64,000 bases of DNA from a virus. Both the position numbers and the translations under genes were made by a program. Below the pieces are notes generated by a model. That model did no database searches. It was not told the origin of the DNA and saw only the letters and a list, made by a program, of their open reading frames with translations. Positions 29,152 to 53,183 of the stretch are shown here, one piece after another (position 1 is the stretch's first letter; each line of letters opens with the position of its first letter). The DNA is taken from the IMG/VR virus record IMGVR_UViG_3300045988_151684, positions 32,001 through 96,000 of that record. One strand, given 5' to 3'.

Positions 29152-29169
29152 GTCTTTCTCCTTTTCTGA

Positions 29170-32255: not shown

Positions 32256-32453
32256 CAAAAAAGCCGCCCATCACAGGCGGCCACGCAAAGATTTATTCAT
32301 TTTTCAAACGAATCATGTGAAGGACTGACTCATTGCAAAACAAAAGCCGCCCGCTAGCAACGGACGGCAAATATAAGGGTACATAATTGAACCCATACAA
32401 CTAACAGTTCAATTATACACCTTATCTTGTAATATTGAAAGGGTGTGTTTTTT

Positions 32454-33551
32454 ATGTCTTATATTCGCAAGAAAGGAAATCGCTGGTATTTCACAATAGA
32501 AATTGGCGAAGGCGGCAAACGCAAGCGCAAGGAACTGGCGGGCGGTAAGACGAAGGCAGAAGCAGCCTACGCCCGCGCCTTGGTTGACCTGCAAGTGAAT
32601 GGTGCTTATATCGAGCCAACCAAAAAGACGCTCAATGAATTTGCCAGTGAATTTTTTACCGATAATTCCCGTAATGTTCACGCTAACACCATTAAGTCGT
32701 ATCAATCTATCTACAGAAATCACATCGCCCCAATTATTGGTGAGCATAAGCTAAGGACGATAAAACCGCGGACGCTGCAAAACCTCTTGAATCAGAAAAA
32801 GGAAGCAGGACTCGCCCGTTCCACGGTTTCCTCTATTTATACCGTCTTGAAAAGGCTTTTTGTTTATGCTGCTGATTTCTGCGAATACATTCCTAAAAAT
32901 CCGGCGCAAAACATCCACCTGCCGAAATACACTCAGCCTCCCCGTACGGTTTTAAGCTTTTCCCCGCAACAAATAGCGGAAATCTTTCGGCGCTTCCCTA
33001 AAGGGCATCAGTTTTTTCTGCCATTAGCTATTTCCTATTATACTGGCGCCCGATTCGGGGAATGTTGTGCCCTTACCTGGCAGGACGTGGACTTCGACAC
33101 GCGGGAAATATCTATAACCCGAACAGTTGTCGAAATGTCCGGCGGTCTTACGGTCCAGGACGTGCCGAAAACATCGAGCAGTTTCCGGATTATTCCTTGC
33201 GGTAAAAAGCTTATAAGTATTTTGCGGGCAGAAAAAGCACTGCAAGCAGCCGCCCGCCTTGCCGGATCCGGTTATGCTGATAACTTTATCATTCATGACA
33301 AACATGGCAAACTCATGGAACCAAACGCAATCAGATACTTTAATATGTATATAAAAAAATACGGCAACGGTTACTCGGTTCATTCCATGCGCCATACGCA
33401 CGCTACTATGCTGCTGGAAGCTGGCGAAGAACTTGAACTCGTCTCAAAACGCCTTGGACATGCCTCAATTGACATCACCGCAAAAACCTATTCTCATGTC
33501 CTCGAAGCACGCAAAAATAAATCCCGCCGACTAATCGACGAGATACTTTGA
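32454..33551 (+). CDS. int: Tyrosine site-specific integrase
   Basis: C-terminal catalytic motifs HSMRHTHATMLLEAG...LGHASIDITAKTYSHV; N-terminal SAM-like domain. Confidence 0.85.
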   Translation: MSYIRKKGNRWYFTIEIGEGGKRKRKELAGGKTKAEAAYARALVDLQVNGAYIEPTKKTLNEFASEFFTDNSRNVHANTIKSYQSIYRNHIAPIIGEHKLRTIKPRTLQNLLNQKKEAGLARSTVSSIYTVLKRLFVYAADFCEYIPKNPAQNIHLPKYTQPPRTVLSFSPQQIAEIFRRFPKGHQFFLPLAISYYTGARFGECCALTWQDVDFDTREISITRTVVEMSGGLTVQDVPKTSSSFRIIPCGKKLISILRAEKALQAAARLAGSGYADNFIIHDKHGKLMEPNAIRYFNMYIKKYGNGYSVHSMRHTHATMLLEAGEELELVSKRLGHASIDITAKTYSHVLEARKNKSRRLIDEIL

Positions 33552-36037: not shown

Positions 36038-36072
36038 GATTAACTCAACGATGAATTGTCGTCGAGTTAATC
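36038..36072. repeat. 14-bp near-perfect inverted repeat GATTAACTCAACGA / TCGTCGAGTTAATC overlapping the endolysin stop
   Basis: Read directly; one mismatch. Confidence 0.5.
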
Positions 36073-36678
36073 ATCATAATAGATATTGGCATCGTACCCG
36101 AAACCGGCCAGATTATCCGTGAACTGATGCATCCGAATGATGTTGTTCGGGTACTCCTCTTTGAGATAATCCCGACAGGCCGTTTCGAACGTGTTGCCCT
36201 CGCCGTAGTTGGCTACCCAATACGGCACATAGTCCGGCAAATCCTCGATACGGATATAATGCGAACTTTCGGCACTCAGCCAACTCCAACTTGCATATAC
36301 ACCATTGTACTGGTGCCCGTAGTTTGTGAGCTGGTTGATAAAGGCGCGGCAGCACTCAGTCACATCACCGTTAAGCATCCGGTTTGACTCTGCATCATAC
36401 CAAATACCCAGCGGCGGTGTTTCGCCTCTCAGGTATTCTTTCAGCCATGCAGCAACCTGATCCGCCTCTGCCACAGCCTCATCATAAGTGCAGGCATGAG
36501 CGAAATAATAAACGCCATACTGCAGGCCATATTCCACAGCGTGATTGATGTGCTCGACAAACATATTGTCGAGGCTGGAGCGCTCGCCGATCTTTAAGAT
36601 AACACCCTCAATGCCGGTATCAGCGAGTGCCTGCCAGTCAATTTCAGTCTGCCATGCGGATATATCAATTACTTTCAT
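36067..36678 (-). CDS. GH25 muramidase endolysin (catalytic domain only)
   Basis: Paralog of 795..1409; same Glyco_hydro_25 motifs. Confidence 0.85.
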   Translation of the reverse strand: MKVIDISAWQTEIDWQALADTGIEGVILKIGERSSLDNMFVEHINHAVEYGLQYGVYYFAHACTYDEAVAEADQVAAWLKEYLRGETPPLGIWYDAESNRMLNGDVTECCRAFINQLTNYGHQYNGVYASWSWLSAESSHYIRIEDLPDYVPYWVANYGEGNTFETACRDYLKEEYPNNIIRMHQFTDNLAGFGYDANIYYDD

Positions 36679-36683
36679 TTTGC

Positions 36684-37127
36684 TTACTTCCTTTCTCGTT
36701 CTTCAGATAGCTGCTTTAACGTATTTTTTAATTTTGCTGGTATTGGCACTCCTGCCTTGCCAGCATTTTCTAATATAGATAGCCCTTCATTGCCTAGAAA
36801 AAACCATGTTACCGCTACACAAATAAGCTGCTGCCCCATAGCATTATCCATGAAGTGAGCTAATGACACTAACAGCAAAATCATTAGTTTTTTGCAAATG
36901 CCTTGAAACCCTCTATGACTGTCAAGAGCCATGTCAGGGTTTACATAAGCCGCCAGCACTCCGCTGATATAGTCAATGACCATTGCGAATATAAGTGCTT
37001 CAAGTACACTGTTCCATGCGCCAAACAGGTATGTTGTCACCATGCCAATTGCTCCTGTCGTCGTCCCCCATAGGGCTTCGACACGAACGGGGACGAGTGA
37101 CCTTATCGCTTCTATTATTACATTCAT
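36684..37127 (-). CDS. Holin (phage_holin_4_1 / phi LC3 family-like)
   Basis: 147 aa with multiple TM helices, directly upstream of the endolysin with a 5-nt gap. Confidence 0.7.
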   Translation of the reverse strand: MNVIIEAIRSLVPVRVEALWGTTTGAIGMVTTYLFGAWNSVLEALIFAMVIDYISGVLAAYVNPDMALDSHRGFQGICKKLMILLLVSLAHFMDNAMGQQLICVAVTWFFLGNEGLSILENAGKAGVPIPAKLKNTLKQLSEERERK

Positions 37128-37408: not shown

Positions 37409-39060
37409 TTACTGCACAAAATCTTTCAGCGCTTTCGCATCATGCAGCAGCTGTGCTTCCTTAGCCGTTGGTTTTTTCTTTGTATGCCACTCTTTTTGAG
37501 CACGCTCCTGAGCGCTCCTATTAGAATCGCTTTCATACCGCTTGAACTGCTTATCCGTTATGCCTAAATCCTGCATAGCCCGCTTATTCTCAGATGTCTT
37601 ATCCTTACGGTATGCATCCATAGCATCCTTCTTTTCATCACCATAACGGCTGCGCATATCATAAAGGTAGCTGTTAATGAAGGATGTATTAGATTCATCA
37701 GTGCTGCGGAAACCCAGCCCATGAATGACTTTAGCAAAACCATCTTCATATACGCTATTAACGCGGTGATGCGTACCATAGCTTGCACCGTTAACCCAGG
37801 CCTGAATCATATTGCCCAATGCTGGTGATATTGCCTTGATTGCTTCCGCTGGATTTCCATTATGCAGCTGGTCAATAGTATTAAATGCTGTGCCCAGAAC
37901 CGGACCGCCTAAAGCATTGGCAATAGCTCCTGCTGCCGATGACGGCGCCGTACCATAATATTTCCCGCTGAACGCACCTGACATCCCGACACGACCTGAA
38001 ATATCAATGCCAGCTAATGCCGGTATTCCATAGATAACCGTTTCAACAAGTTTCTTGCTTGCCGGGTCGTTGCCTGCCCATTTCATCATAGCTGCCTTGC
38101 ACTCATCAGCAAGATTTTCATCTTTACCGGTATAAATACCAAACAGGAATGAGAAGAATTCATTTAGCAAATCGCCAAATGGCAGCGCTCCGGCCGCACC
38201 GGCCAGCAGCATATAAGGAACAAGGAATCTTGCCCGCTGCGCATTGTTTTCAGCATGAACAACATTGTTCCACATAAATTCAAGCTGCATAATCGGGTAC
38301 TTTTGGAACTGGAACATTTGCTGGGTTAATACCGATCCCGCTCTCATTACGCCCGGAGTTGCTACATTTGAATAATCAAAGTTAGCATCAAAGTTTACTT
38401 CCTTGGCATATTGCATAGCTTTTTTAGAAATGGTCTTGCCTGGTTCAGGTTTCATTCCCTTTTCAGTTACACCCTGATAGTATGCTCCTAGGATAGCAGC
38501 TTTACGCATTAATGAATCAGCCATAGTAAACGGCAGCATGGTTTTATTGGCAGCACGTTTTATATTGCCTAAAACATTACGCACTCTGCCTGAATCACGG
38601 TTATGGGAATAGCCGCCACTGTTATCAGCTAATGTTATTTCATTCATAACACCGCTATTCTTCAGTATGCGCCGGTCTAGCTTATTTGGCTTGAGTGCCC
38701 GCTTAAGTCCCTCCATTGCCCATTTGTAACTATTCAGCTTTGTACCAATATTTACAAACTGCATGAAGTTAATTGCTGCTGATGCAAAGTTACCTAAACC
38801 AAGTTTAACTACTGCTATGAAAGAACTGAAATTACTGGATAATGCTAGTGCTGGTCTGCCATTATAATAATCGCTCAGCCGTCGTCCTAGTGCTGTTTTC
38901 TCTAATGACTTATTCAAAAGTTTCTCAAGCCGGCTCGGAACACCGTTCATATCGTTGATATGGTTCTTGATATACCATGCTATATCTGTCTTAGGCTCGG
39001 CATTGAAATCACCAAACCAGCGCTCATAGGTAGATATTGCCTGCGGTTTCCAATGTTCCA
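37409..39060 (-). CDS. Virion-associated protein (550-567 aa) with Gly/Ala-rich segments; start ambiguous (GTG at 39112 overlapping the giant ORF, or ATG at 39060)
   Basis: ORF directly downstream of the giant protein. Confidence 0.45.
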
Positions 39061-39063
39061 TTG

Positions 39064-42000
39064 CTACATAACGTGAGGATGCATTGAAGTAATGCTCCAG
39101 CAGCCACGGCACATCTTTTTCAAACCCCTCGGCGCCTTGCGTTTTTTCATATTACCAAAGAAACGATGCCGTCCCTTTATTTTTGCGCCAGCTGATTCAC
39201 GCAGGAACTTTCTTGCTTCATTGAGTGACATATCCGTATTCTTATGTATCTGGCTAGTCATTCTAGCAAAATCACGGTCCCCAACTACGACGTTGTTGTA
39301 TTCCTCATCATATTCAAAGCCCTGTGCTCTAATAACATATTCAGAATCTGGATTTTCCTTTGCATAACCATTAGCAAGTTTAGCAGCCTCTTTTAAACTT
39401 CTGCCACTGCCACGAGTTACAAGTATTTCTTCTCCATCTTCATTAGTATATTTTTGATAAACCATGAATTTATGAAAGAAATGCGGTACATAGCCAGTTA
39501 ATTTAGTTAAAGGCTTGGGCCGTTCTGTATAATCAACCCGCCATAAAGTAGTACCTAAATCATCCGTCACGGGTTCAAAATCTATAACGCAAACATCCTT
39601 ATCTGCCTTTAATTTACTTAAGGCCTCAGGCGATACCATCTCGCCCGTATGTTCATAAATTTTAGCGCCGCGATATGTTACCAGTATTTTGCCATTGCCT
39701 TTATTAATTATACTAAGAATATCGCTGTCCTTAAGGAAATGTGCCTTTTTGAAATCATCCAGCTGGCTTCTATGAAGAATCTTATTGCGCTCTATCACCT
39801 GCATCCGAGCATCATTTATCAGCTTATAGGCACTGCCAAGACGCAGCCGAACCAGCTTATAGGCACGAATTGCATTATCGGAAAGTCCCATTTCCTTCAA
39901 ATCCTTAACTTTGTATTCCTTGCCTTCCATATCACCTTGCAGCAGCGCCTGTGATACATCGTCCAAATCCTTCTTATCTTTGGTATACTGGTTAAACCGT
40001 TTCATAGCCTCGCCATAATGCGCCCTGAGTTTTTCCTGCTCATCGTATGCCTTGCGGGCTAAATTATAGAAATACTTGACAGCATTATTCTTCTTTGAAA
40101 CCTGTCTTACCGTCTTAACCCACATATCGAGCATATTCAAGTTGTCAATATCACGCTCCTTTTTCTTGCGAATTTCAACGTTCTTTTCGGTGGCAATTTT
40201 ACCCAGCTCGCTCATTGACCTTTTAATGCGGTTCAGCGAACCAGCCGGTTCCGTCTCCGTCTGCATTTCACTGATGGAGTATTTTTGCGTACTAGAAAAG
40301 CCGTCCTTGTCAGAACGGCTTACTGATAATTTGTTGTTGTCGTATTCATAATCGTGAATTGCCTTAACATCGTTTAGATATAATACTGATTGAACCTCGT
40401 AGCTTACATTTTTCTCGGGTTGTTGATTACGTGCATTAAGCTCTCGTACTCCTCCTGTATAGCCTTTCTCAACCTCGACTTCACTTCTTCTATCGGCATT
40501 GTCGGGTGTTCTTTTATCATATCTGGCAGGAGTTCCTCCATCTTTAATGGCTCTATTTTTGACGTTGTTTTGTCGGTTGTCTGATACATAACGCTCAAAC
40601 TCCTCTCCTAATCGGTTAAAACGGCGTGAGTATTCATACGCTTCTTTTGGAAAACCATTCATATCGAAGTTGAATTTTGACCGCAATTCACGAACTATCT
40701 TAGTTCCTAAAAACGCTTGGTCTAACTCATCGTCCGTCATGTCAGGTTTTAGCTTGCCTGCTAATTCCTGCTTCATCTGCTTAATGTCATTATCGGTCAC
40801 TTTTAGGGCATTGTCAAGCTCTCTTTCCCATACTTTTCCAGATTCTATATCCTTAAAAATACGGTTTACTTCCTCAGTCTTGGCAATGATGGAACGCAGC
40901 TTATCAACCATTTCACGGAATTTTTTCCATAGCTTGCCAAACTTGAATGAATTACCGTTAGGGTCTTTAGTAACTCCCTTATTTCTAGCTAGGAACCAGT
41001 CACGGTATCTGTCAGCCGCATACTCAATAACGTCCTTGCCAGCTTTCCTAGCGTCCTCTTTATACGCCTTGATGATTGCAGATTTTTCTTTATCTGTGAG
41101 CACCATATCCCATACCGCATGAAATACTTCATGGTATACGGAACCTTCATCGCCATTTAATGCTAACTGTATTACTGCCTTACTGCCAACCGTATACTCT
41201 TTGCCGTTGACCTTTATCTTTACGCCAGCTTCTAACCCGTGAGCCTTCCTTGCTTTGTCAGCGTCTCCATTATCAACATTGAGTTCATCAGCAATTTGTA
41301 TTTCCACTTCTGCTTTATTGAACATAGTGAAATAAAGTGATGAGCCATCATCACGAATATTTTTGGCAGTCGGCAATGCTTCAGCTATTTCCGTGCGTAA
41401 CCGCCCCATAGCCTGCGCTTTTGCCTGTTCGCTAATCTGCTCTTTTACATTATCTGCTGGGCTGATACTGTAATTGCTTTCGGCTAACAATGCGTTAGCT
41501 TCTTTGACAAATTCATTGCGGTCATTTTCATTTTCAAAGATAAATGAATTGTTAGCATACTTGCTATAGTGACCGTTGTGCTCTTTAGCCAGGTTACTGA
41601 TTGAACGGTATTTATCGCTTAAATATTCGGTTGGTCTTGCCGTTGAATAAAGTTTGTCAACGTTTGGACGGGTATCTTCATGCGTGCCAAGCGTGAAATA
41701 CTGTTCAGATTCAGTGTTTTCAGCTGGTTTAGATTCCGTTGTCGGTACTTTAGCATTAGGGTTATTGGCTTTTTCTGCCAAGTATTTATTGGCAGTACGC
41801 TCAAATTTATTGCGCAATGATTCAGTCGCAAAACCATAACCGCCAAACTTTACATTCCTTCTTCCTTGGTAGTCAAATGCTATTGCATATAACCTATCGT
41901 CGTTCATCAGCTTTACATCATCGACTAAAGCCATATAGCTGTTATTAATGCTTTTTTTATTAACAGTATTGGTGAAATGATTTTTTATATCGGCGCCAAT

Positions 42001-45000
42001 ACGCTCAGGCATGGTCATATTTTTAATACGGCTGAAAAGGTCTTTGATATTCTCTATACCTCTAAGGTCTACTTCATTTCCACCTTGTGCCTGTTTCATA
42101 TCCTCGTCAGTAAGGTATTTATCAATGACTAATATCTTTGTAGCTACGCTTGTTCCAGCACGCTTAAACGTGCATTGTGGAAGTCTTATGGTATTAATGA
42201 GTAAGGCATGTTTTGCTTCATTGTTTCCGTACCATTCATCAAACCGCTTATTAAATGCAGGACCATCAGGGACAATTGCTATTACTCGCCCGCCATCATA
42301 AAGATGTTCAAAGGCTTTTGCCAAGTGTTCCATAGCGGTCTTGCCACCTTTACCGTAAGGAGGATTCATAGCAATACCATCAAACTTATTGGCTTTGGCG
42401 AACTGCTCAAAGGTCGTAGTTTCTACTCTTGAAGTAGTACCGCCTTTTAACCGCATTTTAGCAAGTGTAGCCAGCTGTTCGCTTGGCTCAATAATAGTAT
42501 TCCTTGTCGTAGCACTAAAGTAACGGGATATTGCGCCATGACCTGCGGACGGCTCCAATGCTTTGTTGCCATTCTTCAAGCCTAACCATTCTACCATCTT
42601 AAAGCCTACTGGTTCAGGTGTCGGGTAGTAGTCTACACCTTCACTTGATTTATTACGGCTGTTCTTTTTCGCATTGGTGAAATAATCCGATACGGCTTCA
42701 TCAAATTGGCTAACGCCACTCATTGCTTTGCCATCACGGGCTTTACCGCCTGTACCTTCGGTCTTGCTGTTTGGCAGATAACGTTTCCATGTATCACCGT
42801 CTATTGATTCCATAAAGCCGTTTACGATAGCGTCTCTAAGGTTGCGTGCTTCATAGCCCATAGAAAGATTTTCAGCGGTTGAAGAACGTCCCGCAATCGT
42901 ATCAGCAAAAGCCTGTCTTTCAAAATTCATGCCAGTATTCAGATAGCGGATAATAGCATTAGTTACTACGCCAGTACGATAGATTCGCCCTTCACATTGG
43001 ATTAAGTCCGTTGGTCTTGTTGCCAGCCCCAAGTCTATTAATACCCGCTGGTGTTTTCCTGTCCTGTCGTGCAGGGATATACCTTCTTTAGCAGACGCCC
43101 GCTGACAAAGAAGAACTCTTAAATCATCCTCATCGTCATTAAATTTGTCAACACTATCCTGTCTTAATGATTTTTTCACATCACCATTAAATATGCCGAC
43201 TGTCTTTCCAAGCTCCGACTGAAAACGTTCTATAGGTGACATCAGGTCTTTCATATCCAGCTTTAGCAGTTCAGGATTTTCAGCACAAAAATCCTCATAC
43301 TGCTTGTGAGCCTTAGCCTGATCAGACGGGTCAAGCTCTGCAAAATCATCACTAATAAGCATAAATGGATTTGCAGCTTCATTCTTTTTGAAATCATGGA
43401 ACACTACTACCTGCTTGCCAGCTTTTAAATATTCCTTGATTATTGGGATTGCCGCTTTAGCCTTGACTGCTTCCAGCAGATAACGCCGTCCATTCTTCTT
43501 TAGTTTTTCATCAACCATCTTGGCAATCAGACTGTATTTGTCTCTATCGCCTTTTTCATCGTTGCCATGCAGAATGTCAAGTCCTCTATCAATCTGCTTG
43601 CCTACGCCACCATCAACTAGGATATAGCCACGCTCATAATCGGGCTTAACTTCTAATTTACGGCTGGAAACAGCGCCAATGCTTTTCAGCCATTCATTAA
43701 ATTTTATTTCCATAATGTCTTGGTTAACTTCTGCGTCAGGCTTATTCAGCTTGTTATTGCGCATACGATAACCAAAATGGTCAATCATAAACTGTTCTTG
43801 ACCATCGGTATCATTGTAGTAGCCATGTTTTTCTTTGGCAGGATAATCAAACAAATACCCCTCAGCATATTCTATATTTTTGATGTAGGCAAATGGCGTA
43901 GCTGACAGGAACAGCACTTTATGGCGGTCATTAGCTCCCTTGGCGTCCTCTGCCTGCATAGCTTCATACTCTGCCTTTAGCTTATGGCGTATTCTTTCAT
44001 TTTTAACATGCAGGTCTGCCAGCTGCTGTCTATCACTAGCCGTAAAATCAGATGCTCCGGCTCTGCTGTTCAATGACCTTTCCTGCATTACATTATCATA
44101 ATTTTTAGCTTCGTAATAATCGTTAAAGCCTCTATTATGATAGGTCATGGCACGAACTTTGTTAAGTGCATTAGTATTATTTGCCTGTTCTCCCTGCATT
44201 AGTTTATGAGATTCATCAGTTACGATTAAATCCCAGTCACGTTCTAAAAGGGCGTTGTTTTCACCTACATTTTGATATGAAGTGATAACAATGCCCTCGC
44301 CTTTATCCTTGGTGCTTTTCAGTTTGCTAATATCCAAGCCAAAGAAACCTTTACCCGCATTAATCCAGTCATTCTGTGTTTTATCCTGTGGCGCAATGAT
44401 AAGAATATTCTTTTTGCCACGCTGTACAAAACGCTTGATAACGCCTAAGCCTGTAAAGGTTTTGCCTGTTCCTGTACCGTTGGTAAACATCATACCTTTA
44501 TACGGTTTACCGTTTTTATCGGTGCTGAACAAACGGTTATCAGCTTTTACAACATCATCAACCTGTCCTTTCATCAGGAACGGCATACTAGCTTCTATTT
44601 GCTTTTTACTGCCAGTTTTAAAATTCTTCTTATCGACTTTAGCACCATTTATTGCGCCACGTTTACTGCTTTCATTGACTGGTCGGTTTTCAGCAGATTT
44701 AATACTTTCTGCGCTTCGTCCATCGTCAACCGGCGGTCTGTCGAAACTGTCTCTAATGCTTCTTGATAGGTGTTCAGCTCCGGTGCTATCATTTCCAGCT
44801 GACTGTTTGGTTTCTTCGCTTTGTACTCGGCTATTGCCAGTCTTTCCGCTAGTATCGGTGCTACGTCCGTGAACGCCGCCGCTACGTTGTGACCGTACTT
44901 CTTTTCCAGACGATTGTACACTCTGTCCTCGCCCTGTTCGGGATTCTCCATCTTCATGTACTGACCCCACTGCGTCTTGATTGTCCCCTGCGCTATTTCG

Positions 45001-48000
45001 TTCAGCAGGTTTGTTGGTGCTGTCATAAAGCTCACTGTCCGTTACCTCCTTAGGATTGTTAATTACATTATCTGCGCCAATAAAGCCAAGTTTGAGTAAT
45101 GGTTCAAAATCCTTAGCATTATCTTCACCATATTTTTTAGCAAACTCATTGCGAATATCTTCAAAACCTGCTTTGGGATTCTTTTCCATGACACTGCCAA
45201 CATAGTTAAATGCAGGTATCATTTGAGATTCATCAACCTTGCCGTCAGCAGATTCGAGCATTGACCATACAGGGTGCAGCCATCCACGTATATCATCACC
45301 AAGAGTATCAATCATGGTTTTAGCAAATTCGGTAAAGCCTTTTGCGCCACGTGCTACATACAGTCTGCCTAACTTAAATGCTGGTGCAAGAATGTCGGGG
45401 TCAAATACCGGCAGGGAATTTAATCTGTTGCGGGATTTTTCAAGTGCCTGTTTTAACTCTGCTACCAATTTTGTTTCGGCTTCTTCTGAAATATCAACGC
45501 CAGCAAATTTTTTAGGGTCAATATCCTTCGGCTTATTACCATCAGATTCATCTTTTGATTCTGCTTTAGCTGGTTTTTCCTCAGCCTTTTTCTTTACAGG
45601 TCGAATACCTAAAGCCTTTTCAAGCTCTTTTTCGGCTTCCTCCTGTGTTGAGAAAATCCTGTGTTTCTTTTCTTCTTTTGGCTTTTCATCTTTTACCACG
45701 GGTTCGGATTGAACGGTTTCAGTCCCCTGTGTATGCTCGCTAGATACTTCTCCGCCGTTTCCTTCGGCAACTGTTTCATTACCATCAGTTCCAGCTCGTT
45801 CGGTTCCCTTTTTCTTAGCTTTACTATTGCTAGGCTTTGCAGACGTATTACTATCTTGTTCCTCCTCATGTATTCTTTCCAACAAGTGCTTCCTTATAAG
45901 CACACTATCTGCTAACACACCAGCTCTACTGTACGGATATAAGTCTGGGTTGAATACATTATCGTCTGTATCTTCTATTTCCTTCTCTAACTTGGCTAAT
46001 CTCTCTATTGCTTCTTCATAAGTGATACTTTTTGCCCGATAAGCCTTGATAATCTTGCTTCCTTTTTGGTTAAAACCTTCTCTTATTTCCTCTTTCTCTT
46101 TGTATGAATAGGTTCTGTGCTCATTTTCATTTGTAGCTTTTTCGTTGCCTTCCTCAGCTGGTTCAGCTCCTGCCTTTTTTTCCTGTTCTTCGGCAAGCTC
46201 CTTAGCATAATCAGGTTCGCTCGTATCGGTATCAATTTCTTTTGATTCACCATAGAAATCTTTGACAAAACGGGCTTTATCATCAGAAGTTTCAAAGTCA
46301 AGATTATATACAGGTTTACCATTTTCCAAGTGTCCACGATAGCTTTCAATGTTATAGCCACGGTCGATATAATCCTTTATGTCAGATTCATAGATACCGC
46401 TAACTCCTTTTAGAACAGTATCTTCTTTAGCTGATTTTTCTGCTTTAACTTCCTGTTTATCCTGCTCAGTAACGTTTTCAGCTGCTTCATTCTTGGCAAT
46501 AGCTGGTGTTGCTTCCTCAGCTGGTTTAATTTCCTGCTCTGCTTCATCGTTGGTTTCAGCATTAGCAAGTTTCTTCTCAGCATTGACTATAGCCTTTGGC
46601 ACGCCATGTTCTAGGTCATTGCGCAAATTATCATTAACAGAAATATTCTTTGCTTTCAGCTCATTTAAAAGCTCCTTGCCTAGTTCAATGCGATCAGCCC
46701 GTGACATTTTCTTGACTTCGCTTAACCGTTTTTTATAGTCAAACCTGCTTGGAACATTGCCATACTGACTGTTTCTTATTTGCTCTGCTTCCTTATGGAA
46801 CCCCATTGCGTCCGCTTCATTTGCCATTGCACCTATATCACTCTTGGCTTTTGCTTGACGGAATACAGGCGAATCGTTAAGCCGTGCCATTGGGTCATTG
46901 GTATTTACGGTTGGTGCTTTACGTTTTGGCGTGTCAGGAATAACAATATCAGGAGTTTCAGCAGGTGCGCCATTCGGAACAATAATCCCTGCATTAGGCG
47001 TAGCAGGATTAATTGCAAGCCCAGCTTTCTGCATACGTGCGTCTATTGCTTGACGGTTGGCATTAGCCTGTTGCTGGTTATTGTTTAAATCCTGCTGTAT
47101 GGTGCTGTCTAAAACATTACCGTCTATTGGCTGTCCATTCATAGCTGACTGCATAATAGCACTAGCCGTTGTGGGCAGATTTTGCTGTGTGGCCTGTGCA
47201 GCAGCATATTGCGGGTTATTATTTGCTATGCTGGCTAACTCTTCAAGATTTGCTATTGAAATATGCTGCTGATTATTTTTTATATTGCCAGCCAGTCCCT
47301 GACCATCCGGCAGTGCGGGGAAAGCATTTGGCACATCAAGCTGGATGCCATTCATGATAGCATTTTGAATGTTGCCAGCTGAGGCATTAACTCCCTGCGT
47401 CAGCAGATTGACCATAGTATTGTTCCAGCCATTACTGCGGGCAACTAAAGCAGCCTCAGCAATTTTTCCCTGTGATGCCAGTTTAGTGATATCATCTACT
47501 GTCTGAGCAAATCTGTTGCCATAATTAGTTGAAACTCTTGTCTGTGCTGGTGCCTGCGGATTAATATTGTCAATTTTCGGTGTGGCCGGCGCTCTCCTTG
47601 GTGATGGGGCTTTAGCTGCCATCACGGTCTTCATCATAGCATTAGCAGTTTCCTGCGGATGCATCTTAAATATTGCGCCAATATCACCACCATCAATTGC
47701 ATTTTGCATAGCAGCTGCATGGGCTGCGTCCTCATTTACATCATCACTTACTGGCATATTCATCAACTGAGTAGCCATTTCCATTACTGACTGCTGCTGC
47801 TCCGGCGTCACCTCATTATTGCTAATAAGTGCCTGCGCTGCTTCCATATTCGCCTTTTCCTGCTCTGGTGTCAGGTCATATTGAGATAAATTGAATCCGG
47901 GAACAGTTATATTATAACTGCCACCACTGCCATTTAAAGCTTCACCATGGTCACTGAAATGTAAATGACCGCCGGTAGCATTAGCCGAAGGATTACTATA

Positions 48001-49863
48001 TTCGTCTAAACCATATAATCCATATTCCTTAGCCTTATCTATTAACCAGTTACGCGCATCCGCATTACCCTCAAGAAAATCATCGGCCGTATCAAAAGCC
48101 TGTGCCGAATCATGCCAGCTTTCACCACCGCCATTGCGAGCCATCGACGTTATATAAAAGTGCCGTCCATACTGGTTATAATAGTCACGGTCTAACAGTC
48201 TTAATTTCTGCTCAGTCAAATCAGTTAGATTAGGATTAGAAACTTCACCGCTTATAGTATAGTCTGCTGTCTGTGGAATATCTAAAGCTGGTGACTGCGC
48301 TTTTTCATCAGCAAAATGCCCCATTGCACTATTTACATAGCCAGCTATGGATGGACCATTGCCCTGTGGCGCATCCCAAGGTCTGCCATTTTGGTCAGTA
48401 GCTTCTCCCTCAACCCAGCGCTGAGCATTGTTTGGACCGGAATACCATGCAACTAATGCCCCTTCTGGACCATACTCATCAAAATACTGTCCCATTTTAA
48501 AACGTCCGACTTGACGGTACGCATCATCATCATCCATGCTTGCACCACCAAGACCAGCTTCTTTTGACCATGCATCCCAATTTTCCGGCTGAATCTGATA
48601 AACACCACGCGCACCCGTAGATGATACCGCATCAGGATCACCGCCGCTTTCCTGCATTTCAATAGCGTTGAAAAATGCTTCTTTGTCGCTGCCGCCGTTA
48701 TTAGCATTGCCACGTTGTACCGTAACTGTGCTTTCCGGAACATCAGCAATCTCTGTTTTATTGCCAGCAGTTTCTTCCATGCCATTAAATGGATTATTAG
48801 GATTACTTTTAGCAGCTTCATTATTCATTCTATTAATTCTAGCTTTATAATCCCTATAAGCAGTATGGCCTGCGCCAAACAGACCTAATGGCAGGCTGCC
48901 CATAAAGGCAGCTCGTCCTGCCTGCTGTTCGTCCTCTGTTGGATTAAAGAACGTACCATACGGCTTGCCACTCCATTTATTTTGTGCCTGCTGTTGTGTC
49001 ATTTCCTGAGCATACTCCGAGGCTGCCGAGCCCGGAATATTAACGCCATAGCCGGCAATCTTGCCTGCTCTGCCACCCCGTTTGAATATCGGCTTAAAGC
49101 CTTTACCTTCAAGGATAGGTCCCATAATACCCTGAGTAAGCATATCCATTGGCAGTTCTTCTTGTATCATGCTATTCATACGACGAGCAATTTCATCATC
49201 AGAAAGTCCCTCGTCTTTTAAATCAGCATACATATCGCCGGCATTAGTTGCTGCTTCCAGTGGTCCCGTACCTAAGGCCCATTTTGCTGCTGAAGCTCCT
49301 GCCTGCTGTCCTGCCTTTGACATAATAGCCTTGCCTATCTGCTTAGCTCCAGCACGGGCAGCCATTGAACCAATACCACGTGCAGCAAGTGCGCCAGCAC
49401 CGCCAAATGGTGCTGCGGCACTAGCAGCCGCAAACGGAATAGCCGAACCTGCCATCTGACTAAAGTCAGCCAGCAGACCTCGTTTGTCTGTCAAATAATC
49501 AGCACTGGTTAATCTGTCAATTATACTCATATCCTGATATTTATCAAGCGTGCCAGATTCAGCAAAATTCTTAGCTGCTTTATCATTAAGATATTCACCA
49601 TTATTTATAAATGAATCGCCCCATTTACCGAGCGTACCCTCATCTGAATTGCGGATTGAATCAACATAAGAACTTTCCCGCCCTGCCTCGTCAAAACGTT
49701 TCAGTTGTGCTCCTATATAATCAAGCCCGCCACCAATTACGCTTTCGGCTCCGCCTGCTAAGTTATCCATTATGGTTGAAAACAATCCCTTTTCTTTTGG
49801 TGCAGCAGCTGATACGCCAGCTACTACAGGATTGCTTATTGCATGTTCTTTTAAAAATGACAT
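39064..49863 (-). CDS. Giant polyvalent virion/ejection-type protein (3,599 aa) with lytic transglycosylase, M15-like peptidase, low-complexity linkers, SNF2-family helicase, N6-adenine MTase and an HExxH domain (DarB-like anti-restriction architecture)
   Basis: Motifs read in the translation: AIEMQESGG..GVYQIQP (SLT); SWHDSAQAFDTAD..GGHLHFSDHG (M15); GTGKTFTG, DESH, LSATPF, QCEGRIYRTG (SF2/SNF2); EPSAGHGA and NPPYGKGG (MTase I/IV); VYHEVFHAV (zincin). Confidence 0.85.
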   Translation of the reverse strand: MSFLKEHAISNPVVAGVSAAAPKEKGLFSTIMDNLAGGAESVIGGGLDYIGAQLKRFDEAGRESSYVDSIRNSDEGTLGKWGDSFINNGEYLNDKAAKNFAESGTLDKYQDMSIIDRLTSADYLTDKRGLLADFSQMAGSAIPFAAASAAAPFGGAGALAARGIGSMAARAGAKQIGKAIMSKAGQQAGASAAKWALGTGPLEAATNAGDMYADLKDEGLSDDEIARRMNSMIQEELPMDMLTQGIMGPILEGKGFKPIFKRGGRAGKIAGYGVNIPGSAASEYAQEMTQQQAQNKWSGKPYGTFFNPTEDEQQAGRAAFMGSLPLGLFGAGHTAYRDYKARINRMNNEAAKSNPNNPFNGMEETAGNKTEIADVPESTVTVQRGNANNGGSDKEAFFNAIEMQESGGDPDAVSSTGARGVYQIQPENWDAWSKEAGLGGASMDDDDAYRQVGRFKMGQYFDEYGPEGALVAWYSGPNNAQRWVEGEATDQNGRPWDAPQGNGPSIAGYVNSAMGHFADEKAQSPALDIPQTADYTISGEVSNPNLTDLTEQKLRLLDRDYYNQYGRHFYITSMARNGGGESWHDSAQAFDTADDFLEGNADARNWLIDKAKEYGLYGLDEYSNPSANATGGHLHFSDHGEALNGSGGSYNITVPGFNLSQYDLTPEQEKANMEAAQALISNNEVTPEQQQSVMEMATQLMNMPVSDDVNEDAAHAAAMQNAIDGGDIGAIFKMHPQETANAMMKTVMAAKAPSPRRAPATPKIDNINPQAPAQTRVSTNYGNRFAQTVDDITKLASQGKIAEAALVARSNGWNNTMVNLLTQGVNASAGNIQNAIMNGIQLDVPNAFPALPDGQGLAGNIKNNQQHISIANLEELASIANNNPQYAAAQATQQNLPTTASAIMQSAMNGQPIDGNVLDSTIQQDLNNNQQQANANRQAIDARMQKAGLAINPATPNAGIIVPNGAPAETPDIVIPDTPKRKAPTVNTNDPMARLNDSPVFRQAKAKSDIGAMANEADAMGFHKEAEQIRNSQYGNVPSRFDYKKRLSEVKKMSRADRIELGKELLNELKAKNISVNDNLRNDLEHGVPKAIVNAEKKLANAETNDEAEQEIKPAEEATPAIAKNEAAENVTEQDKQEVKAEKSAKEDTVLKGVSGIYESDIKDYIDRGYNIESYRGHLENGKPVYNLDFETSDDKARFVKDFYGESKEIDTDTSEPDYAKELAEEQEKKAGAEPAEEGNEKATNENEHRTYSYKEKEEIREGFNQKGSKIIKAYRAKSITYEEAIERLAKLEKEIEDTDDNVFNPDLYPYSRAGVLADSVLIRKHLLERIHEEEQDSNTSAKPSNSKAKKKGTERAGTDGNETVAEGNGGEVSSEHTQGTETVQSEPVVKDEKPKEEKKHRIFSTQEEAEKELEKALGIRPVKKKAEEKPAKAESKDESDGNKPKDIDPKKFAGVDISEEAETKLVAELKQALEKSRNRLNSLPVFDPDILAPAFKLGRLYVARGAKGFTEFAKTMIDTLGDDIRGWLHPVWSMLESADGKVDESQMIPAFNYVGSVMEKNPKAGFEDIRNEFAKKYGEDNAKDFEPLLKLGFIGADNVINNPKEVTDSELYDSTNKPAERNSAGDNQDAVGSVHEDGESRTGRGQSVQSSGKEVRSQRSGGVHGRSTDTSGKTGNSRVQSEETKQSAGNDSTGAEHLSRSIRDSFDRPPVDDGRSAESIKSAENRPVNESSKRGAINGAKVDKKNFKTGSKKQIEASMPFLMKGQVDDVVKADNRLFSTDKNGKPYKGMMFTNGTGTGKTFTGLGVIKRFVQRGKKNILIIAPQDKTQNDWINAGKGFFGLDISKLKSTKDKGEGIVITSYQNVGENNALLERDWDLIVTDESHKLMQGEQANNTNALNKVRAMTYHNRGFNDYYEAKNYDNVMQERSLNSRAGASDFTASDRQQLADLHVKNERIRHKLKAEYEAMQAEDAKGANDRHKVLFLSATPFAYIKNIEYAEGYLFDYPAKEKHGYYNDTDGQEQFMIDHFGYRMRNNKLNKPDAEVNQDIMEIKFNEWLKSIGAVSSRKLEVKPDYERGYILVDGGVGKQIDRGLDILHGNDEKGDRDKYSLIAKMVDEKLKKNGRRYLLEAVKAKAAIPIIKEYLKAGKQVVVFHDFKKNEAANPFMLISDDFAELDPSDQAKAHKQYEDFCAENPELLKLDMKDLMSPIERFQSELGKTVGIFNGDVKKSLRQDSVDKFNDDEDDLRVLLCQRASAKEGISLHDRTGKHQRVLIDLGLATRPTDLIQCEGRIYRTGVVTNAIIRYLNTGMNFERQAFADTIAGRSSTAENLSMGYEARNLRDAIVNGFMESIDGDTWKRYLPNSKTEGTGGKARDGKAMSGVSQFDEAVSDYFTNAKKNSRNKSSEGVDYYPTPEPVGFKMVEWLGLKNGNKALEPSAGHGAISRYFSATTRNTIIEPSEQLATLAKMRLKGGTTSRVETTTFEQFAKANKFDGIAMNPPYGKGGKTAMEHLAKAFEHLYDGGRVIAIVPDGPAFNKRFDEWYGNNEAKHALLINTIRLPQCTFKRAGTSVATKILVIDKYLTDEDMKQAQGGNEVDLRGIENIKDLFSRIKNMTMPERIGADIKNHFTNTVNKKSINNSYMALVDDVKLMNDDRLYAIAFDYQGRRNVKFGGYGFATESLRNKFERTANKYLAEKANNPNAKVPTTESKPAENTESEQYFTLGTHEDTRPNVDKLYSTARPTEYLSDKYRSISNLAKEHNGHYSKYANNSFIFENENDRNEFVKEANALLAESNYSISPADNVKEQISEQAKAQAMGRLRTEIAEALPTAKNIRDDGSSLYFTMFNKAEVEIQIADELNVDNGDADKARKAHGLEAGVKIKVNGKEYTVGSKAVIQLALNGDEGSVYHEVFHAVWDMVLTDKEKSAIIKAYKEDARKAGKDVIEYAADRYRDWFLARNKGVTKDPNGNSFKFGKLWKKFREMVDKLRSIIAKTEEVNRIFKDIESGKVWERELDNALKVTDNDIKQMKQELAGKLKPDMTDDELDQAFLGTKIVRELRSKFNFDMNGFPKEAYEYSRRFNRLGEEFERYVSDNRQNNVKNRAIKDGGTPARYDKRTPDNADRRSEVEVEKGYTGGVRELNARNQQPEKNVSYEVQSVLYLNDVKAIHDYEYDNNKLSVSRSDKDGFSSTQKYSISEMQTETEPAGSLNRIKRSMSELGKIATEKNVEIRKKKERDIDNLNMLDMWVKTVRQVSKKNNAVKYFYNLARKAYDEQEKLRAHYGEAMKRFNQYTKDKKDLDDVSQALLQGDMEGKEYKVKDLKEMGLSDNAIRAYKLVRLRLGSAYKLINDARMQVIERNKILHRSQLDDFKKAHFLKDSDILSIINKGNGKILVTYRGAKIYEHTGEMVSPEALSKLKADKDVCVIDFEPVTDDLGTTLWRVDYTERPKPLTKLTGYVPHFFHKFMVYQKYTNEDGEEILVTRGSGRSLKEAAKLANGYAKENPDSEYVIRAQGFEYDEEYNNVVVGDRDFARMTSQIHKNTDMSLNEARKFLRESAGAKIKGRHRFFGNMKKRKAPRGLKKMCRGCWSITSMHPHVM
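41080..41160 (-). other. Domain: zincin-like HExxH motif
   Basis: GSVYHEVFHAVWD encoded at ~41105..41135. Confidence 0.4.
42150..42650 (-). other. Domain: N6-adenine DNA methyltransferase (gamma-class motif order)
   Basis: Motif I LEPSAGHGA upstream of motif IV NPPYGKGG (~42350). Confidence 0.75.
42950..44500 (-). other. Domain: SF2 helicase (SNF2-like)
   Basis: Walker A GTGKT (~44465), DESH (~44210), LSATP, motif VI QCEGRIYRTG (~42990). Confidence 0.8.
47900..48180 (-). other. Domain: M15/Hedgehog-type zinc peptidase-like
   Basis: SWHDSAQAFDTAD (about 48106) and GGHLHFSDHG (about 47945). Confidence 0.55.
48400..48720 (-). other. Domain: family-1 lytic transglycosylase (SLT)
   Basis: EMQESGG...ARGVYQIQ motif encoded around 48640..48670. 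Confidence 0.75.
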
Positions 49864-49884: not shown

Positions 49885-51675
49885 TTAATCACCATATCGG
49901 TTTCTCATGTCTTGAATAATAGCAGGATCTATACGTGCCAAAAGCTCGTCATTGCCTGTTTTTATATCATCCCAATAAATTTTGGTATTTGGATTTGCTG
50001 GATCCCGATTATATTCTCTTAAAAAATTCCCTAGATACTGCAATTCATTATCCTCCCAAGCATTATCATCTTCATCATGCCCAGGAATACCAATAGCTTT
50101 TTCTTTAAACCCATTAAAATCTATATCGCCACTAAGATATTGCTGTATATACTGGTCATATTTGGCTTTATGACCTTCTTCCTTAGCTGTTGCTGCTGAT
50201 GATTTAGCACCTCTTTGGTACTTTCCACTTGCTAAATCTTCGGCGTGCCATTTATCTCTTGCTTGTATATCCTCAGCCTTACGTTTATTTGCTGCCTGCT
50301 CTTTCATAACCGCCGTCTGATAACCAAAATTCTGACCGCGGGCCGTAAGATTCCCCTTCATTTTATCCGTTGGACTTATTGCTTTGTTGAATGTCTGCGT
50401 ACTGCCAGCACCATAACCGCTCGGGTCATAATAAGAAACATACTTCTTATCACCTGTATCAGTTTCATGCATAGTGTAATTACGCTTTGTTTTATCAAAA
50501 GCATTGATAATGTCTTTCGGATCAGCGCCGGATGCTACCAGCATAGCCAGCATACTTCCAGCTTGAGGATTGCTTGCCAGGCTTTCAATGAATTTACCCT
50601 GTAGCATTTTCTTAGTCTTTTCTGCTTCCTGCTTATCCATCTTGGCCAACGCCGCCTCAACCTGATTTTGTGGCAACCCCTGGTTAATCAAAGCACGGCG
50701 CAAATTATCCCGATAATCCGGTGAAGCTTTTTCGCTAGCAATATCTTTCATAGCCAGTTGCTTGGCTGTTGCGTCTAACACAGTGTTGTAATCTGCACCC
50801 TTGCCATAGACATCGTATATATCCTGCATGGTAATAGTATCTGGATTACTATAGGCTTGTTTTGCAGCATCCTGAACATCCTTAACACTGAACGTATAAG
50901 GATTAGTATTGGCAGCATTATTTCCCGCCGGAAGCTGATTTTGTGCTGCTCCGTTTTGTCTTATTGGCTGTGCTCCAGCTAATTCATTAGCTACTTCCTG
51001 TAATGTCTGTGGCGATGCATTGCCATTTCTGTACAGCTCACTTATTTCTGCTTTGGTAGGCGCATAGTTAAACGGCTTTAGTCCTAATGCTGCCTGAGCT
51101 ATTTCTTCTTTGGTGGGTGGCTTCTTATATGATATATCCAGCTCATTTTTTGGCATTTGATAATTGCCAAATCTGTAATTTGGTGACATTTCCGCCTCAG
51201 CAGCAGCCTTGGCAGCAGCTAAACTGTTGACATTCCCCCCTACTTTTGACATATCTATATGCTTTCTGTCACCAATCTTACGGAACTCATCGGCCATAGT
51301 ATGTGCCGTATTTTGTATATCACGGAATTTTTTTACATCATCGGAATCTTCACCGTAACCATTATTAAGTAAATATTGTGCATCATTCTGTGCCTGCCAC
51401 CAGCGACGTTTAGCATTTAATAAACCTTGCTGTGGTGTAAGACCTACATAATCACCCGCATTAGACTGATTCTTTAATGCCTCTGCTGCTTCTGCTCTAT
51501 GCTGATCAGCATACTTATCAAGCATATCCTGCTGATACCTCTTGATAGCGTCACCAGCTTTATCTATGCCACGCTGATTATAATTTTGTGCCCAGGCATT
51601 ACCTAGTGCTGCCCCTAAAGCACTGCCAAGCTCCGGTGAAAAAACATCATCTCTTATATCACTCCACCAGCCCAT
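49885..51675 (-). CDS. Virion internal or structural protein (596 aa), Gln/Ala/Asn-rich
   Basis: ORF immediately upstream of the giant protein. Confidence 0.4.
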   Translation of the reverse strand: MGWWSDIRDDVFSPELGSALGAALGNAWAQNYNQRGIDKAGDAIKRYQQDMLDKYADQHRAEAAEALKNQSNAGDYVGLTPQQGLLNAKRRWWQAQNDAQYLLNNGYGEDSDDVKKFRDIQNTAHTMADEFRKIGDRKHIDMSKVGGNVNSLAAAKAAAEAEMSPNYRFGNYQMPKNELDISYKKPPTKEEIAQAALGLKPFNYAPTKAEISELYRNGNASPQTLQEVANELAGAQPIRQNGAAQNQLPAGNNAANTNPYTFSVKDVQDAAKQAYSNPDTITMQDIYDVYGKGADYNTVLDATAKQLAMKDIASEKASPDYRDNLRRALINQGLPQNQVEAALAKMDKQEAEKTKKMLQGKFIESLASNPQAGSMLAMLVASGADPKDIINAFDKTKRNYTMHETDTGDKKYVSYYDPSGYGAGSTQTFNKAISPTDKMKGNLTARGQNFGYQTAVMKEQAANKRKAEDIQARDKWHAEDLASGKYQRGAKSSAATAKEEGHKAKYDQYIQQYLSGDIDFNGFKEKAIGIPGHDEDDNAWEDNELQYLGNFLREYNRDPANPNTKIYWDDIKTGNDELLARIDPAIIQDMRNRYGD

Positions 51676-53183
51676 TAATCATCACCCCATATCTCGCTGC
51701 TGCCACCATTGGCAATGAAGCCATCCGCAATGTAGTTGTTTGCGCCGTCAACCTGCAAATCATAGACCCTGCGTTCACCGCTATAGACAACACTTTGAAC
51801 TTTGCCAACATTTTTAAGCTCTGTACCAATCGTAAGGTAACTTAGCATTACATACTCGCCATCAGGCTTCATAAAGCTCTGTGTAAGTGTGGTACTCGTA
51901 TGACCGTCTTTTGCAATGACACAATAAACGTCATTGTATCTAGGTTCCATAGTCTTTACTACCTTAGCAGTAGTGCCATCAGCCGTCATGACTTCATCAC
52001 CTGCATGAACATGCTTAATATCCCGCTTACTGCCATCAGCCATGTCAATCATAGTTCCCTCCGGGAAACAAGCCCAGCCCATAGCAGCACCACCTACAGC
52101 TGACCCTAGCAAGTTGCCAAAGAAACTGCCGCCTGATGTATGCTGATTTTGTGTTGATGTACTAGTTCCTTTTCCGGCAGCTGCGGCCAACGCTCCAGTA
52201 TTGGCACCATTGAGACCAAGCGAAGTCTGCCACAAATTCATTGCTGGCGTCTGCGCTGCTTCCTGCGCTGTTGCCGCTGCCGTAATAGGTGATGTAGCTG
52301 AATCAATAAGATTGCCATACAAACCTTGGTTAGCACTGTTATTGCCCTGCGTATTGCTTAGCTGCTGCTGCGTTATGGCTCCTGCCTGGCCAAGAGCACC
52401 ACTATTAACACCGTACTGCCGGCTTATAATATCACCTAAGCTGTTCGTTGCATTGTTAGTATTTTGATTTTGCTGCTGGGCAAGATTGGCTGCCTGATTA
52501 ATATTGTTTTGATACTGTGATGCCACACTGTCGCTGGCATTTTTCTCAATGTCATTAAGTGCACTCGATGTTACGGACGAATTTAGTACGCCTCGATTGC
52601 CTAAATTGTTAATCGCTTTGCCAACCGTATTATTAACCGCTGAGTTGATACTTTTTTCCATATTCTGCTGATATGCAGAAGGCAAATTGCCATTTTCTAA
52701 GCTGCTAAGCGTACTATTTGCTTTATTTGCCGAATCAACATAGCTTCCCGCAAGATTTCCATACTGATTTGATGTACTATTAGCCAGTTTATAATTCTGA
52801 TTTACTAAATCACCAAGCGTGCCGTTAGCGTTGTTAGTTGCTGAATTATTACTGCCAATAAGCCCTGCCAGCCCATTTGTCGCATTGCCTATCTGATTTT
52901 GTGCATTTTTGTTCATGGCGTTATAGTCGACCTGAACCGTACCTAGAGAATCTCTAAGCAAATTCATAGCATAATCATTAAGCGTTATGGCATTTGGCAT
53001 AACAGCATCAATATATTTGCCCTGCTGCTTCATCAGATACTTTTCTTCCTCTGATGGAGTATAGGTACTGGTATTAGTAACGGTTGTCGAATGTCCTTTG
53101 AAGTAGCAACGATGGAAATATTTTCTGTATACTTCGCTGTGTAAATTATCTTGCGGTCTATCAAACCACATCTGCTGAAACAT
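51675..53183 (-). CDS. Asn/Gln/Ser-rich low-complexity protein with a C-terminal Hint (intein/BIL-like) domain
   Basis: C-terminal ~130 aa: CFPEGTMIDMADGS...VYDLQVDGANNYIADGFIANGG; long N/Q/S-rich N-terminal region. Confidence 0.65.
   Translation of the reverse strand: MFQQMWFDRPQDNLHSEVYRKYFHRCYFKGHSTTVTNTSTYTPSEEEKYLMKQQGKYIDAVMPNAITLNDYAMNLLRDSLGTVQVDYNAMNKNAQNQIGNATNGLAGLIGSNNSATNNANGTLGDLVNQNYKLANSTSNQYGNLAGSYVDSANKANSTLSSLENGNLPSAYQQNMEKSINSAVNNTVGKAINNLGNRGVLNSSVTSSALNDIEKNASDSVASQYQNNINQAANLAQQQNQNTNNATNSLGDIISRQYGVNSGALGQAGAITQQQLSNTQGNNSANQGLYGNLIDSATSPITAAATAQEAAQTPAMNLWQTSLGLNGANTGALAAAAGKGTSTSTQNQHTSGGSFFGNLLGSAVGGAAMGWACFPEGTMIDMADGSKRDIKHVHAGDEVMTADGTTAKVVKTMEPRYNDVYCVIAKDGHTSTTLTQSFMKPDGEYVMLSYLTIGTELKNVGKVQSVVYSGERRVYDLQVDGANNYIADGFIANGGSSEIWGDD

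Follow-up and report, generated by a model that had tools for sequence, protein, structure and literature searches.

The giant gene and its interruption

The stretch of DNA analysed here (the window) comprises 64,000 nucleotides of a viral record in IMG/VR (IMGVR_UViG_3300045988_151684, positions 32,001 to 96,000), and our subject is a giant gene that ends the late genes of a prophage within it. A first-pass annotation made from the sequence alone had read the locus as one open reading frame (ORF) of 3,599 amino acids (aa), flanked by Gly/Ala-rich proteins of 596 and about 560 aa. The ORF listing and translation returned this frame, with an ATG start, on the minus strand at 39064-49863 (ORF A). 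The frame is real but its end is unnatural, the last 23 residues being out of frame, and the supposed flanking protein of about 560 aa (ORF B) proved on comparison to be the frameshifted C-terminus of the giant gene and not a separate protein. The features concerned are as follows.

37409-49863, minus strand: the whole disrupted giant gene, two overlapping ORFs, about 4,151 aa once the missing base is restored; colinear with the orthologue P0029
39064-49863, minus strand: ORF A, 3,599 aa, made up of 3,576 authentic residues and a 23-residue out-of-frame tail
37409-39112, minus strand: ORF B, 567 aa, the C-terminal two thirds of a conserved PLxRFG-like module
39137-39138, minus strand: the frameshift site, a 1-nucleotide deletion in a run of three A, placed by DNA comparison with loci L011 and L012
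37409-40161, minus strand: the conserved C-terminal module, about 917 aa, from residue about 3235 to the restored end, spanning the frameshift

ORF B overlaps ORF A by 49 nucleotides, and three-frame translation of the junction showed that the sequence carries on in another frame. A query joined across the junction retrieved 23 homologues with 32-78% identity, most of them at 95-100% query coverage, and all but one of these ran uninterrupted through the junction (RHRFFGN..RKGAxGF..W.L.HY). At the DNA level the window reads CGC AAG GCG CCG AG where the intact orthologues in L011 and L012 read CGC AAA GGC GCC GAG. A frameshift in the preceding A6 run (GAAAAAAC) was also considered and was ruled out, since the alignments to homologues and to intact DNA place the lesion in the CGC AAA GGC codon that follows it.

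The orthologue P0029, from a library of representatives at 50% identity, is a continuous protein of 4,091 aa that is 95-97% identical over both ORFs, and its gene lies in identical surroundings in two independent metagenome contigs. At six more loci with the same 596-aa upstream gene the giant gene was a single ORF of 4,229, 4,277, 4,717 or 4,830 aa; in all, 8 of 8 other places examined had one intact ORF. On the strength of these alignments, ORF A is a frameshift-truncated piece of a larger gene and ORF B is the C-terminus of the same gene. The first-pass annotation had considered that its ORF might be a frameshifted fusion of separate genes; the relation is the inverse, a single larger gene having been cut. 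Databases list the exact 3,599-aa product for two large contigs, 322,526 and 430,859 bp long (ENA; JGI/IMG); as both have the same allele, the deletion probably reflects a genuine mutation rather than a single error of assembly.

Interruptions of other kinds were seen in two sets of relatives. In L003, an independent metagenome scaffold, a gap of 10 N lies at about 4428-4437 between CGCAAG and GGCGCG, in the same codon as the window deletion. No codons are missing there, and the gap splits the gene call too, with P0014 starting at MEHFKP; its position may be a coincidence, or the site may be locally error-prone or variable. In L009 (9995-10003 and 11552-11593), and likewise in L010, the giant gene was called as three ORFs of 2,699 or 2,765, then 517, then 348 aa, which are in the same frame and are split only by single in-frame TAG codons, one of them aligning with a Gln of the window protein. 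The pattern resembles a recoding of the TAG stop in the late genes of these phages.

Enzymatic domains of the giant protein

All of the motifs quoted in the first-pass annotation were found, in the order given there: EMQESGG at residue 402, SWHDSAQAFD at 582, GGHLHF at 631, GTGKT at 1798, DESH at 1883, LSATP at 1986, QCEGRIYRTG at 2289, EPSAGHGA at 2437, NPPYGKGG at 2500 and HEVFH at 2911. They fall in the following segments.

48403-48687, minus strand: SLT lytic transglycosylase, residues 393-487 (PF01464, E 2.6e-8, 33.9 bits against a cutoff of 21.3)
47920-48231, minus strand: candidate LAS/M15-like zinc peptidase, residues about 545-648 (H-x6-D and HxH)
45814-47766, minus strand: low-complexity A/N/Q- and E/K-rich linkers, residues about 700-1350 (composition)
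42970-44502, minus strand: SF2/SNF2-type helicase, residues 1788-2298 (Pfam; PHROG 10691 and 5143)
42094-42636, minus strand: gamma-class N6-adenine DNA methyltransferase, residues 2410-2590 (TP...xPxxGxG...NPPY)
40804-41466, minus strand: zincin-like metallopeptidase, residues about 2800-3020 (HEVFH and a downstream E)

The SLT domain scored above its Pfam cutoff, and its fold was matched by Foldseek to Pseudomonas aeruginosa Slt with a probability of 0.97-1.0. The M15-like peptidase that had been proposed next to it had marginal support. Neither whole-protein nor segment scans gave a Pfam match for this region, and as a single sequence it matched the LD-carboxypeptidase LdcB weakly (E 0.05), aligned on SWHDSAQAFD. 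In an alignment of 15 diverse homologues the H and D of H-x6-D and the E were invariant, the second position of HxH being H or D, and when the profile was compared with the PDB, the best 23 of its 25 matches were LAS-fold proteins, hedgehog N-terminal domains at E 0.009-0.06 and LdcB at E 0.03. These alignments centre on the zinc-binding helix-strand-HxxGxAxD element. The AlphaFold model of the SLT and M15-like regions was poor (predicted local distance difference test, pLDDT, 62; about 60-80 in the M15 part), and from it Foldseek recovered the SLT domain and no LAS match. The conserved residues and profile matches make a LAS/M15-type peptidase likely, with marginal support at the superfamily level. 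A homologue of residues about 535-660, P0026, is a stand-alone protein of 235 aa in which an M15-like domain (60% identity) is followed by an I-HmuI-type NUMOD/HNH segment, possibly reflecting a homing endonuclease inserted in a relative of the giant gene.

The long linkers agreed in composition with their earlier description, and Pfam scans of sub-segments gave no family match in residues about 700-1350. The hidden Markov model check that had been proposed for the helicase and the methyltransferase was run and supported both. For the helicase, ResIII (E 5.8e-12) and SNF2-rel_dom (just below its cutoff) matched residues 1788-1900 and Helicase_C (E 4.7e-5) residues 2212-2298. Scanning ten sub-segments with Pfam added the methylase only; residues 2400-2600 taken alone matched MTS (1.7e-5) and N6_Mtase (2.1e-4), both above cutoff, and PHROG 6263, 'DNA methyltransferase', matched at 2.4e-21. 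Many bacterial genomes encode the same helicase-methylase unit, in the same order, as a protein of ~840 aa on its own (38-41% identity), and the helicase homologues often match the Strawberry-notch-type Helicase_C_4.

For the HExxH region no sequence match was found in Pfam or the PDB. The domain (residues about 2800-3020) was present in 128 representative clusters, mostly proteins of 3,000-5,800 aa, and in an alignment of 21 diverse members the H, E and H of HExxH were invariant, together with a glutamate 32 residues downstream. An AlphaFold model built from that alignment had a mean pLDDT of 82 and a predicted template modelling score of 0.78. As modelled, the domain has a zincin fold, in keeping with the motif noticed at first pass, and is the lethal-factor-like MPTase of polyvalent proteins (PMC5512222).

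In intact relatives the order of domains is a Gly/Ala-rich N-terminus, the SLT domain, the LAS-type candidate, the linkers, the Sno/SNF2-type helicase, the methylase, the zincin and the PLxRFG-like module. These relatives carry the whole series in a single polypeptide of 4,100-4,800 aa.

The C-terminal module and its cargo

The 23 homologues of the C-terminal module differ in the N-terminal cargo that they carry. ORF B aligned with positions 300-671 of the 681 in NCBIfam NF032893, 'PLxRFG domain-containing protein' (tail-700), at E 8e-20 in a sub-cutoff match, as were those of the homologues P0004 (73.5 bits) and P0023 (81.2 bits), which covered only profile positions about 270-670. A profile of the module found no sequence relative in the PDB.

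The cargo ranges in size from none to about 3,900 aa and includes zeta toxin/AAA_33 (P0004, 1,340 aa), LPD23, ART-PolyVal and PBECR1, while L009 and L010 have LPD3, ART, ddrB-ParB and PBECR1. At L019 two adjacent genes encode the cargo (1,459 aa) and the module (967 aa) separately. At L008 a cargo segment has 97% identity to window residues 1352-3018, but identity falls to 49-50% in the module behind it, which indicates recombination at the boundary between cargo and module. A further set of loci (L034-L036 and L040, giant gene start about 11813 or 21141) has identical 596-aa and structural genes and an alternative cargo in proteins of 4,717-4,830 aa, consisting of SLT with WH_1, DUF8437 and Helicase_dom (Pfam PF28553-PF28555) and not the ResIII/methylase version. 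As this cargo stands beside identical structural genes, the type of cargo varies within one phage lineage.

A scan for the module in one genome per species gave 21 loci, in Negativicutes (Selenomonas, Pectinatus, Acidaminococcus, Megamonas, Megasphaera and Veillonellaceae), in Synergistota and in two bins from metagenomes that bear the labels Ruminococcaceae and Bacillota; the ORFs that end in the module reach more than 4,280 aa in these genomes. Proteins of 4,046 aa in a prophage of Megasphaera massiliensis NP3 and of 4,135 aa in one of M. intestinihominis are built like the window protein throughout. A diderm Firmicute (Negativicutes) is the most likely host of the element, and a diderm host fits the need for a periplasmic wall-cutting function. 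The constancy of the module suggests that it has a role in incorporation or ejection.

Genomic surroundings

Three further features define the setting of the giant gene.

49885-51675, minus strand: gene for the 596-aa protein, invariably immediately upstream of the giant gene
36067-37127, minus strand: lysis cassette, a Phage_holin_4_1 holin (36684-37127) and a GH25 endolysin (36067-36678)
32445-33551, plus strand: tyrosine integrase, a marker of where the prophage ends

The late operon closes with the giant gene, directly before the holin and endolysin, as the first-pass annotation had it, and in all relatives too the virion module ends with this gene. Its 596-aa neighbour, which gave no family match in Pfam or PHROG, also stands beside the giant gene in L011 and L034-L040. 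A contig with the same structural genes that reaches past the window end carries a terminase-sized gene, a portal matching SU10_portal/P22_portal and a capsid protein matching SU10_MCP, followed by the genes of window 49-64 kb. The element is a temperate short-tailed phage (podophage) with an SU10/P22-type portal and capsid. It had been remarked that no tape measure or head gene could be recognised in this module; the missing tape measure gene follows from the short-tailed type, whereas the head genes lie beyond the window end. An origin in a conjugative element was ruled out by the context of portal, capsid, holin and endolysin.

Two genes upstream of the giant gene, at 51675-53183 on the minus strand, a 502-aa protein has a C-terminal Hint/intein-like domain (Hom_end_hint at residues 372-432, intein C-terminal splicing motif at 473-490) and is kept in all relatives (502-503 aa). 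This suggests that the virion-module protein undergoes autoproteolytic processing. Within the podophage structural module a RelE/HTH_3 toxin-antitoxin-like pair lies on the opposite strand (57278-57962, plus), a position occupied in relatives by RelB/YoeB or HicAB and in one (L035) by an AcrIF11-like ADP-ribosyltransferase.

The left third of the window (about 360-22100, minus) is occupied by a second, unrelated prophage of a long-tailed phage, with genes for the large terminase (19326-21074), portal (18083-19339), major head protein (16244-17224) and tape measure (10746-13622) and a G+C content of 30-36%, against 42-47% elsewhere in the window. The GH25 endolysin genes at 795-1409 and 36067-36678, both on the minus strand, share one 90%-identity cluster, so the lysins of the long-tailed prophage and the podophage are near-identical. 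The left copy is in a stretch of 47% G+C beside low-G+C structural genes, and this contrast suggests that it is part of a recombinant lysis cassette. Between the two prophages, beside the integrase, are ParA-like, ParB-like and rolling-circle Rep-like genes (26559-30270, minus), which may belong to a third integrated or plasmid-derived element.

Comparison with known proteins

The best isolated-phage match of the helicase-methylase core was gp81 of Serratia phage Parlo (3,764 aa, 'DarB-like antirestriction'; 37.6% identity over 1,214 aa), with others in Klebsiella phage ZX1 ('PLxRFG protein', 36% identity) and Pseudomonas phage Skulduggery; megablast of the giant gene against isolated phages gave no match. 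ORF B was colinear with the C-terminus of Parlo gp81 (pairwise E 1e-7), and Parlo has the same gene order, from virion proteins to giant gene to lysis genes. The methylase, of the EcoKI/TaqI-like gamma class, was similar to residues 88-275 of P1 DarB in a blastp comparison (24% identity over 200 aa, E 4e-6), with the TP and NPPY motifs present. The two proteins share a same-family N6-adenine methylase and an SF2 helicase, and a role in DNA entry is expected of both, but P1 DarB (2,255 aa, an antirestriction head protein) is without SLT, peptidase or PLxRFG module, and P1 is a myophage. DarB requires the partners DarA, Hdf and Ddr. By sequence comparison, 'DarB-like' is here a functional analogy with partial homology, not membership.

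Parlo gp81 carries helicase, methylase, N-terminal transglycosylase and acyltransferase domains and has been linked to Bcep22-like phages (PMC6606913). JC1 gp69, of 4,515 aa, takes up 22% of its genome, precedes the lysis module and was represented by 51 unique peptides in purified virions by mass spectrometry (PMC9144972); the Bcep22 giant protein is likewise found in virions, as cited in that paper. The window protein resembles Bcep22 gp75, JC1 gp69 and Parlo gp81 in its size (>3,500 aa), in its N-terminal transglycosylase, helicase and methylase, and in being encoded by a temperate podophage. It differs from those of Bcep22 and Parlo in its host lineage, which is Negativicutes-type and not Proteobacteria, in having an extra LAS-like peptidase and no detected acyltransferase domain, in a C-terminal module too divergent for tblastn, and in being frameshifted. 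Lastaviruses encode a 495-kDa PLxRFG protein (PMC9505181), and in this group (Klebsiella phages ZX1, SopranoGao, SJM3 and LASTA) the C-terminal ~700 residues of the giant protein are the PLxRFG domain, as here, although the sub-cutoff window match to NF032893 takes in only the C-terminal 55% of the profile. Such proteins have been regarded by Casjens and colleagues as putative very large ejection proteins (PMC8402733).

Polyvalent proteins were defined by Iyer et al. (2017), who proposed that they are injected with the DNA, that their lysozyme domains breach peptidoglycan, that a methylase-helicase dyad gives DarB-like protection and that the MPTase processes them (PMC5512222). The window protein shares with this class its disparate enzymatic domains in one polypeptide, its late/virion gene context, a lethal-factor-like MPTase, a lysozyme-type domain and a methylase with SWI2/SNF2 ATPase; relatives of its module carry ART-PolyVal, ddrB-ParB, PBECR1, LPD3/LPD23 and zeta toxin. 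The dyad is described as LPD36-methylase-SF2 helicase, with the methylase 'nearly always' N-terminal to the helicase (PMC5512222), whereas in the window protein the helicase (1788-2298) precedes the methylase (2410-2590), and the Pfam polyvalent models (LPD, including LPD36, and MPTase-PolyVal) gave no match to the window protein itself. T7 gp16 and P22 gp7, gp16 and gp20 are podophage internal proteins that leave with the DNA, and T7 gp16 has an N-terminal lytic transglycosylase; the likeness is one of function, the window protein being ten-fold larger than the ejection proteins of T7 and P22 and having no PHROG or Pfam match to their families.

Discussion

The reading that we favour, with a probability of about 0.78, is that the locus is a giant polyvalent late gene of a temperate short-tailed prophage, encoding a packaged and ejected multi-tool protein, and that this copy is frameshifted. 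The mechanism is drawn by analogy with Bcep22/JC1 gp69, Parlo gp81, P1 DarB and T7 gp16. The protein would be made late, packaged into the capsid and released with the DNA at infection, when its two wall-degrading domains would breach the periplasmic peptidoglycan, the helicase/methylase pair would act on the incoming DNA and blunt restriction, and the zincin domain would cleave the polyprotein into working pieces. The C-terminal module would be a constant chassis for incorporation or ejection, with exchangeable N-terminal cargo. The 1-nucleotide deletion severs the last 567 residues of this putative chassis in the middle of its most conserved motif, and for this reason the window copy is probably impaired or recently inactivated.

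Several observations weigh against this reading. That the protein is expressed late, packaged and ejected, and that it cuts the wall, methylates the entering DNA and processes itself, is deduced from its homologues and the literature, and the effect of the frameshift is one that we infer; the frameshifted copy may yield nothing functional. For the M15-like assignment the E-values are near 0.01. The DarB-type arrangement proposed at first pass held for the methylase, but P1 DarB has its methylase before its helicase, the reverse of the window protein, and the two helicases were not significantly similar (E > 4). ORF B scored 70.8 bits against the curated NF032893 cutoff of 100, and the restored 917-aa module gave no match to this model in a scan. 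The module also had no tblastn match in 50,697 isolated phage records, and the neighbouring virion genes had no similarity to those of Parlo.

A second possibility, to which we give somewhat less than an even chance, is that the gene is dead, a pseudogene remnant in a decaying prophage whose function the frameshift has abolished. The deletion falls within the most conserved motif of the C-terminal module. The intact ORF in every other place examined and the allele's occurrence in two large contigs, where it is probably a real mutation, also favour a dead gene, as does a frameshift site that is not a slippery heptamer. However, the two contigs could be one strain, and the 12.4 kb of gene are otherwise free of stops and frameshifts. 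Between ORF B and the intact orthologue the identity is 98.9%, the differences being 11 synonymous and 6 non-synonymous; in the 300 codons upstream of the frameshift the numbers were 17 and 2, a contrast with ORF B that was not significant, and the comparison further upstream was spoiled by indels. Given this identity and the lack of further decay, the lesion is either very recent or tolerated. Tolerance would be easier to accept in view of the GAGGGG resembling a Shine-Dalgarno sequence ahead of the GTG start of ORF B, and of L019, where cargo and module are naturally separate ORFs.

A related proposal, which we regard as doubtful, is that podophages of diderm Firmicutes and Synergistota have in the module a self-contained delivery chassis, onto which arbitrary enzymatic cargo is grafted by recombination and which could work in trans. 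It is prompted by the 97% identical cargo on a 49% identical module in L008 and by the span of cargo sizes from none to ~3,900 aa. If it were true, the split window allele and the two-gene form in L019 would remain functional, and the chassis would constitute a natural, programmable protein-injection system.

It seems unlikely that the protein is left unpackaged and acts late in the producing cell, the methylase and helicase modifying progeny DNA before packaging and the SLT and peptidase domains assisting the holin and endolysin. The position of the gene, which directly precedes the lysis cassette on the same strand, would suit such a role, as would the stand-alone helicase-methylase proteins of bacterial genomes, but homologous giant proteins are present in purified virions (JC1 gp69 and, as cited in PMC9144972, that of Bcep22), the phage already owns a dedicated GH25 endolysin, the giant gene is terminal in the virion module of all relatives, and a length of 4,000 aa with a conserved non-enzymatic module is hard to square with a cytoplasmic enzyme. 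A programmed split, in which the phage would join the two ORFs by ribosomal frameshifting or make them as two subunits under regulation, is highly improbable and programmed frameshifting was rejected: a -1 shift after AAG would restore the exact wild-type peptide RKGAEG, and L003, L009 and L010 are also interrupted, but C GCA AGG does not fit the slippery heptamer pattern X XXY YYZ, the eight closely related places are uninterrupted, the L003 gap is an assembly feature, and the TAG codons lie elsewhere in the gene and point to stop-codon recoding, not to frameshifting.

On the favoured reading of a packaged, ejected multi-tool protein, the first-pass annotation was right as to the kind of fusion, that of the virion-module class with a transglycosylase and a helicase/methylase pair, but the combination is not new, having been described in the Bcep22-like phages, Parlo, the Lastaviruses and the survey of polyvalent proteins. 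The idea of an ejected multi-tool protein dates from 2011-2017 and is the accepted hypothesis for the class, so that no new mechanism is opened here. For annotation, what is listed beside such a gene as a 567-aa 'hypothetical protein' can be the C-terminus cut off from it, and the label 'DarB-like' conceals a reversed domain order and a helicase without significant similarity to that of DarB. For the biology of these phages, the locus extends the giant DarB-like/polyvalent class from the podophages of Proteobacteria to prophages of Negativicutes and Synergistota, diderms of gut and rumen of which few phages have been studied, and in these phages it is a conserved C-terminal module that bears interchangeable cargo.

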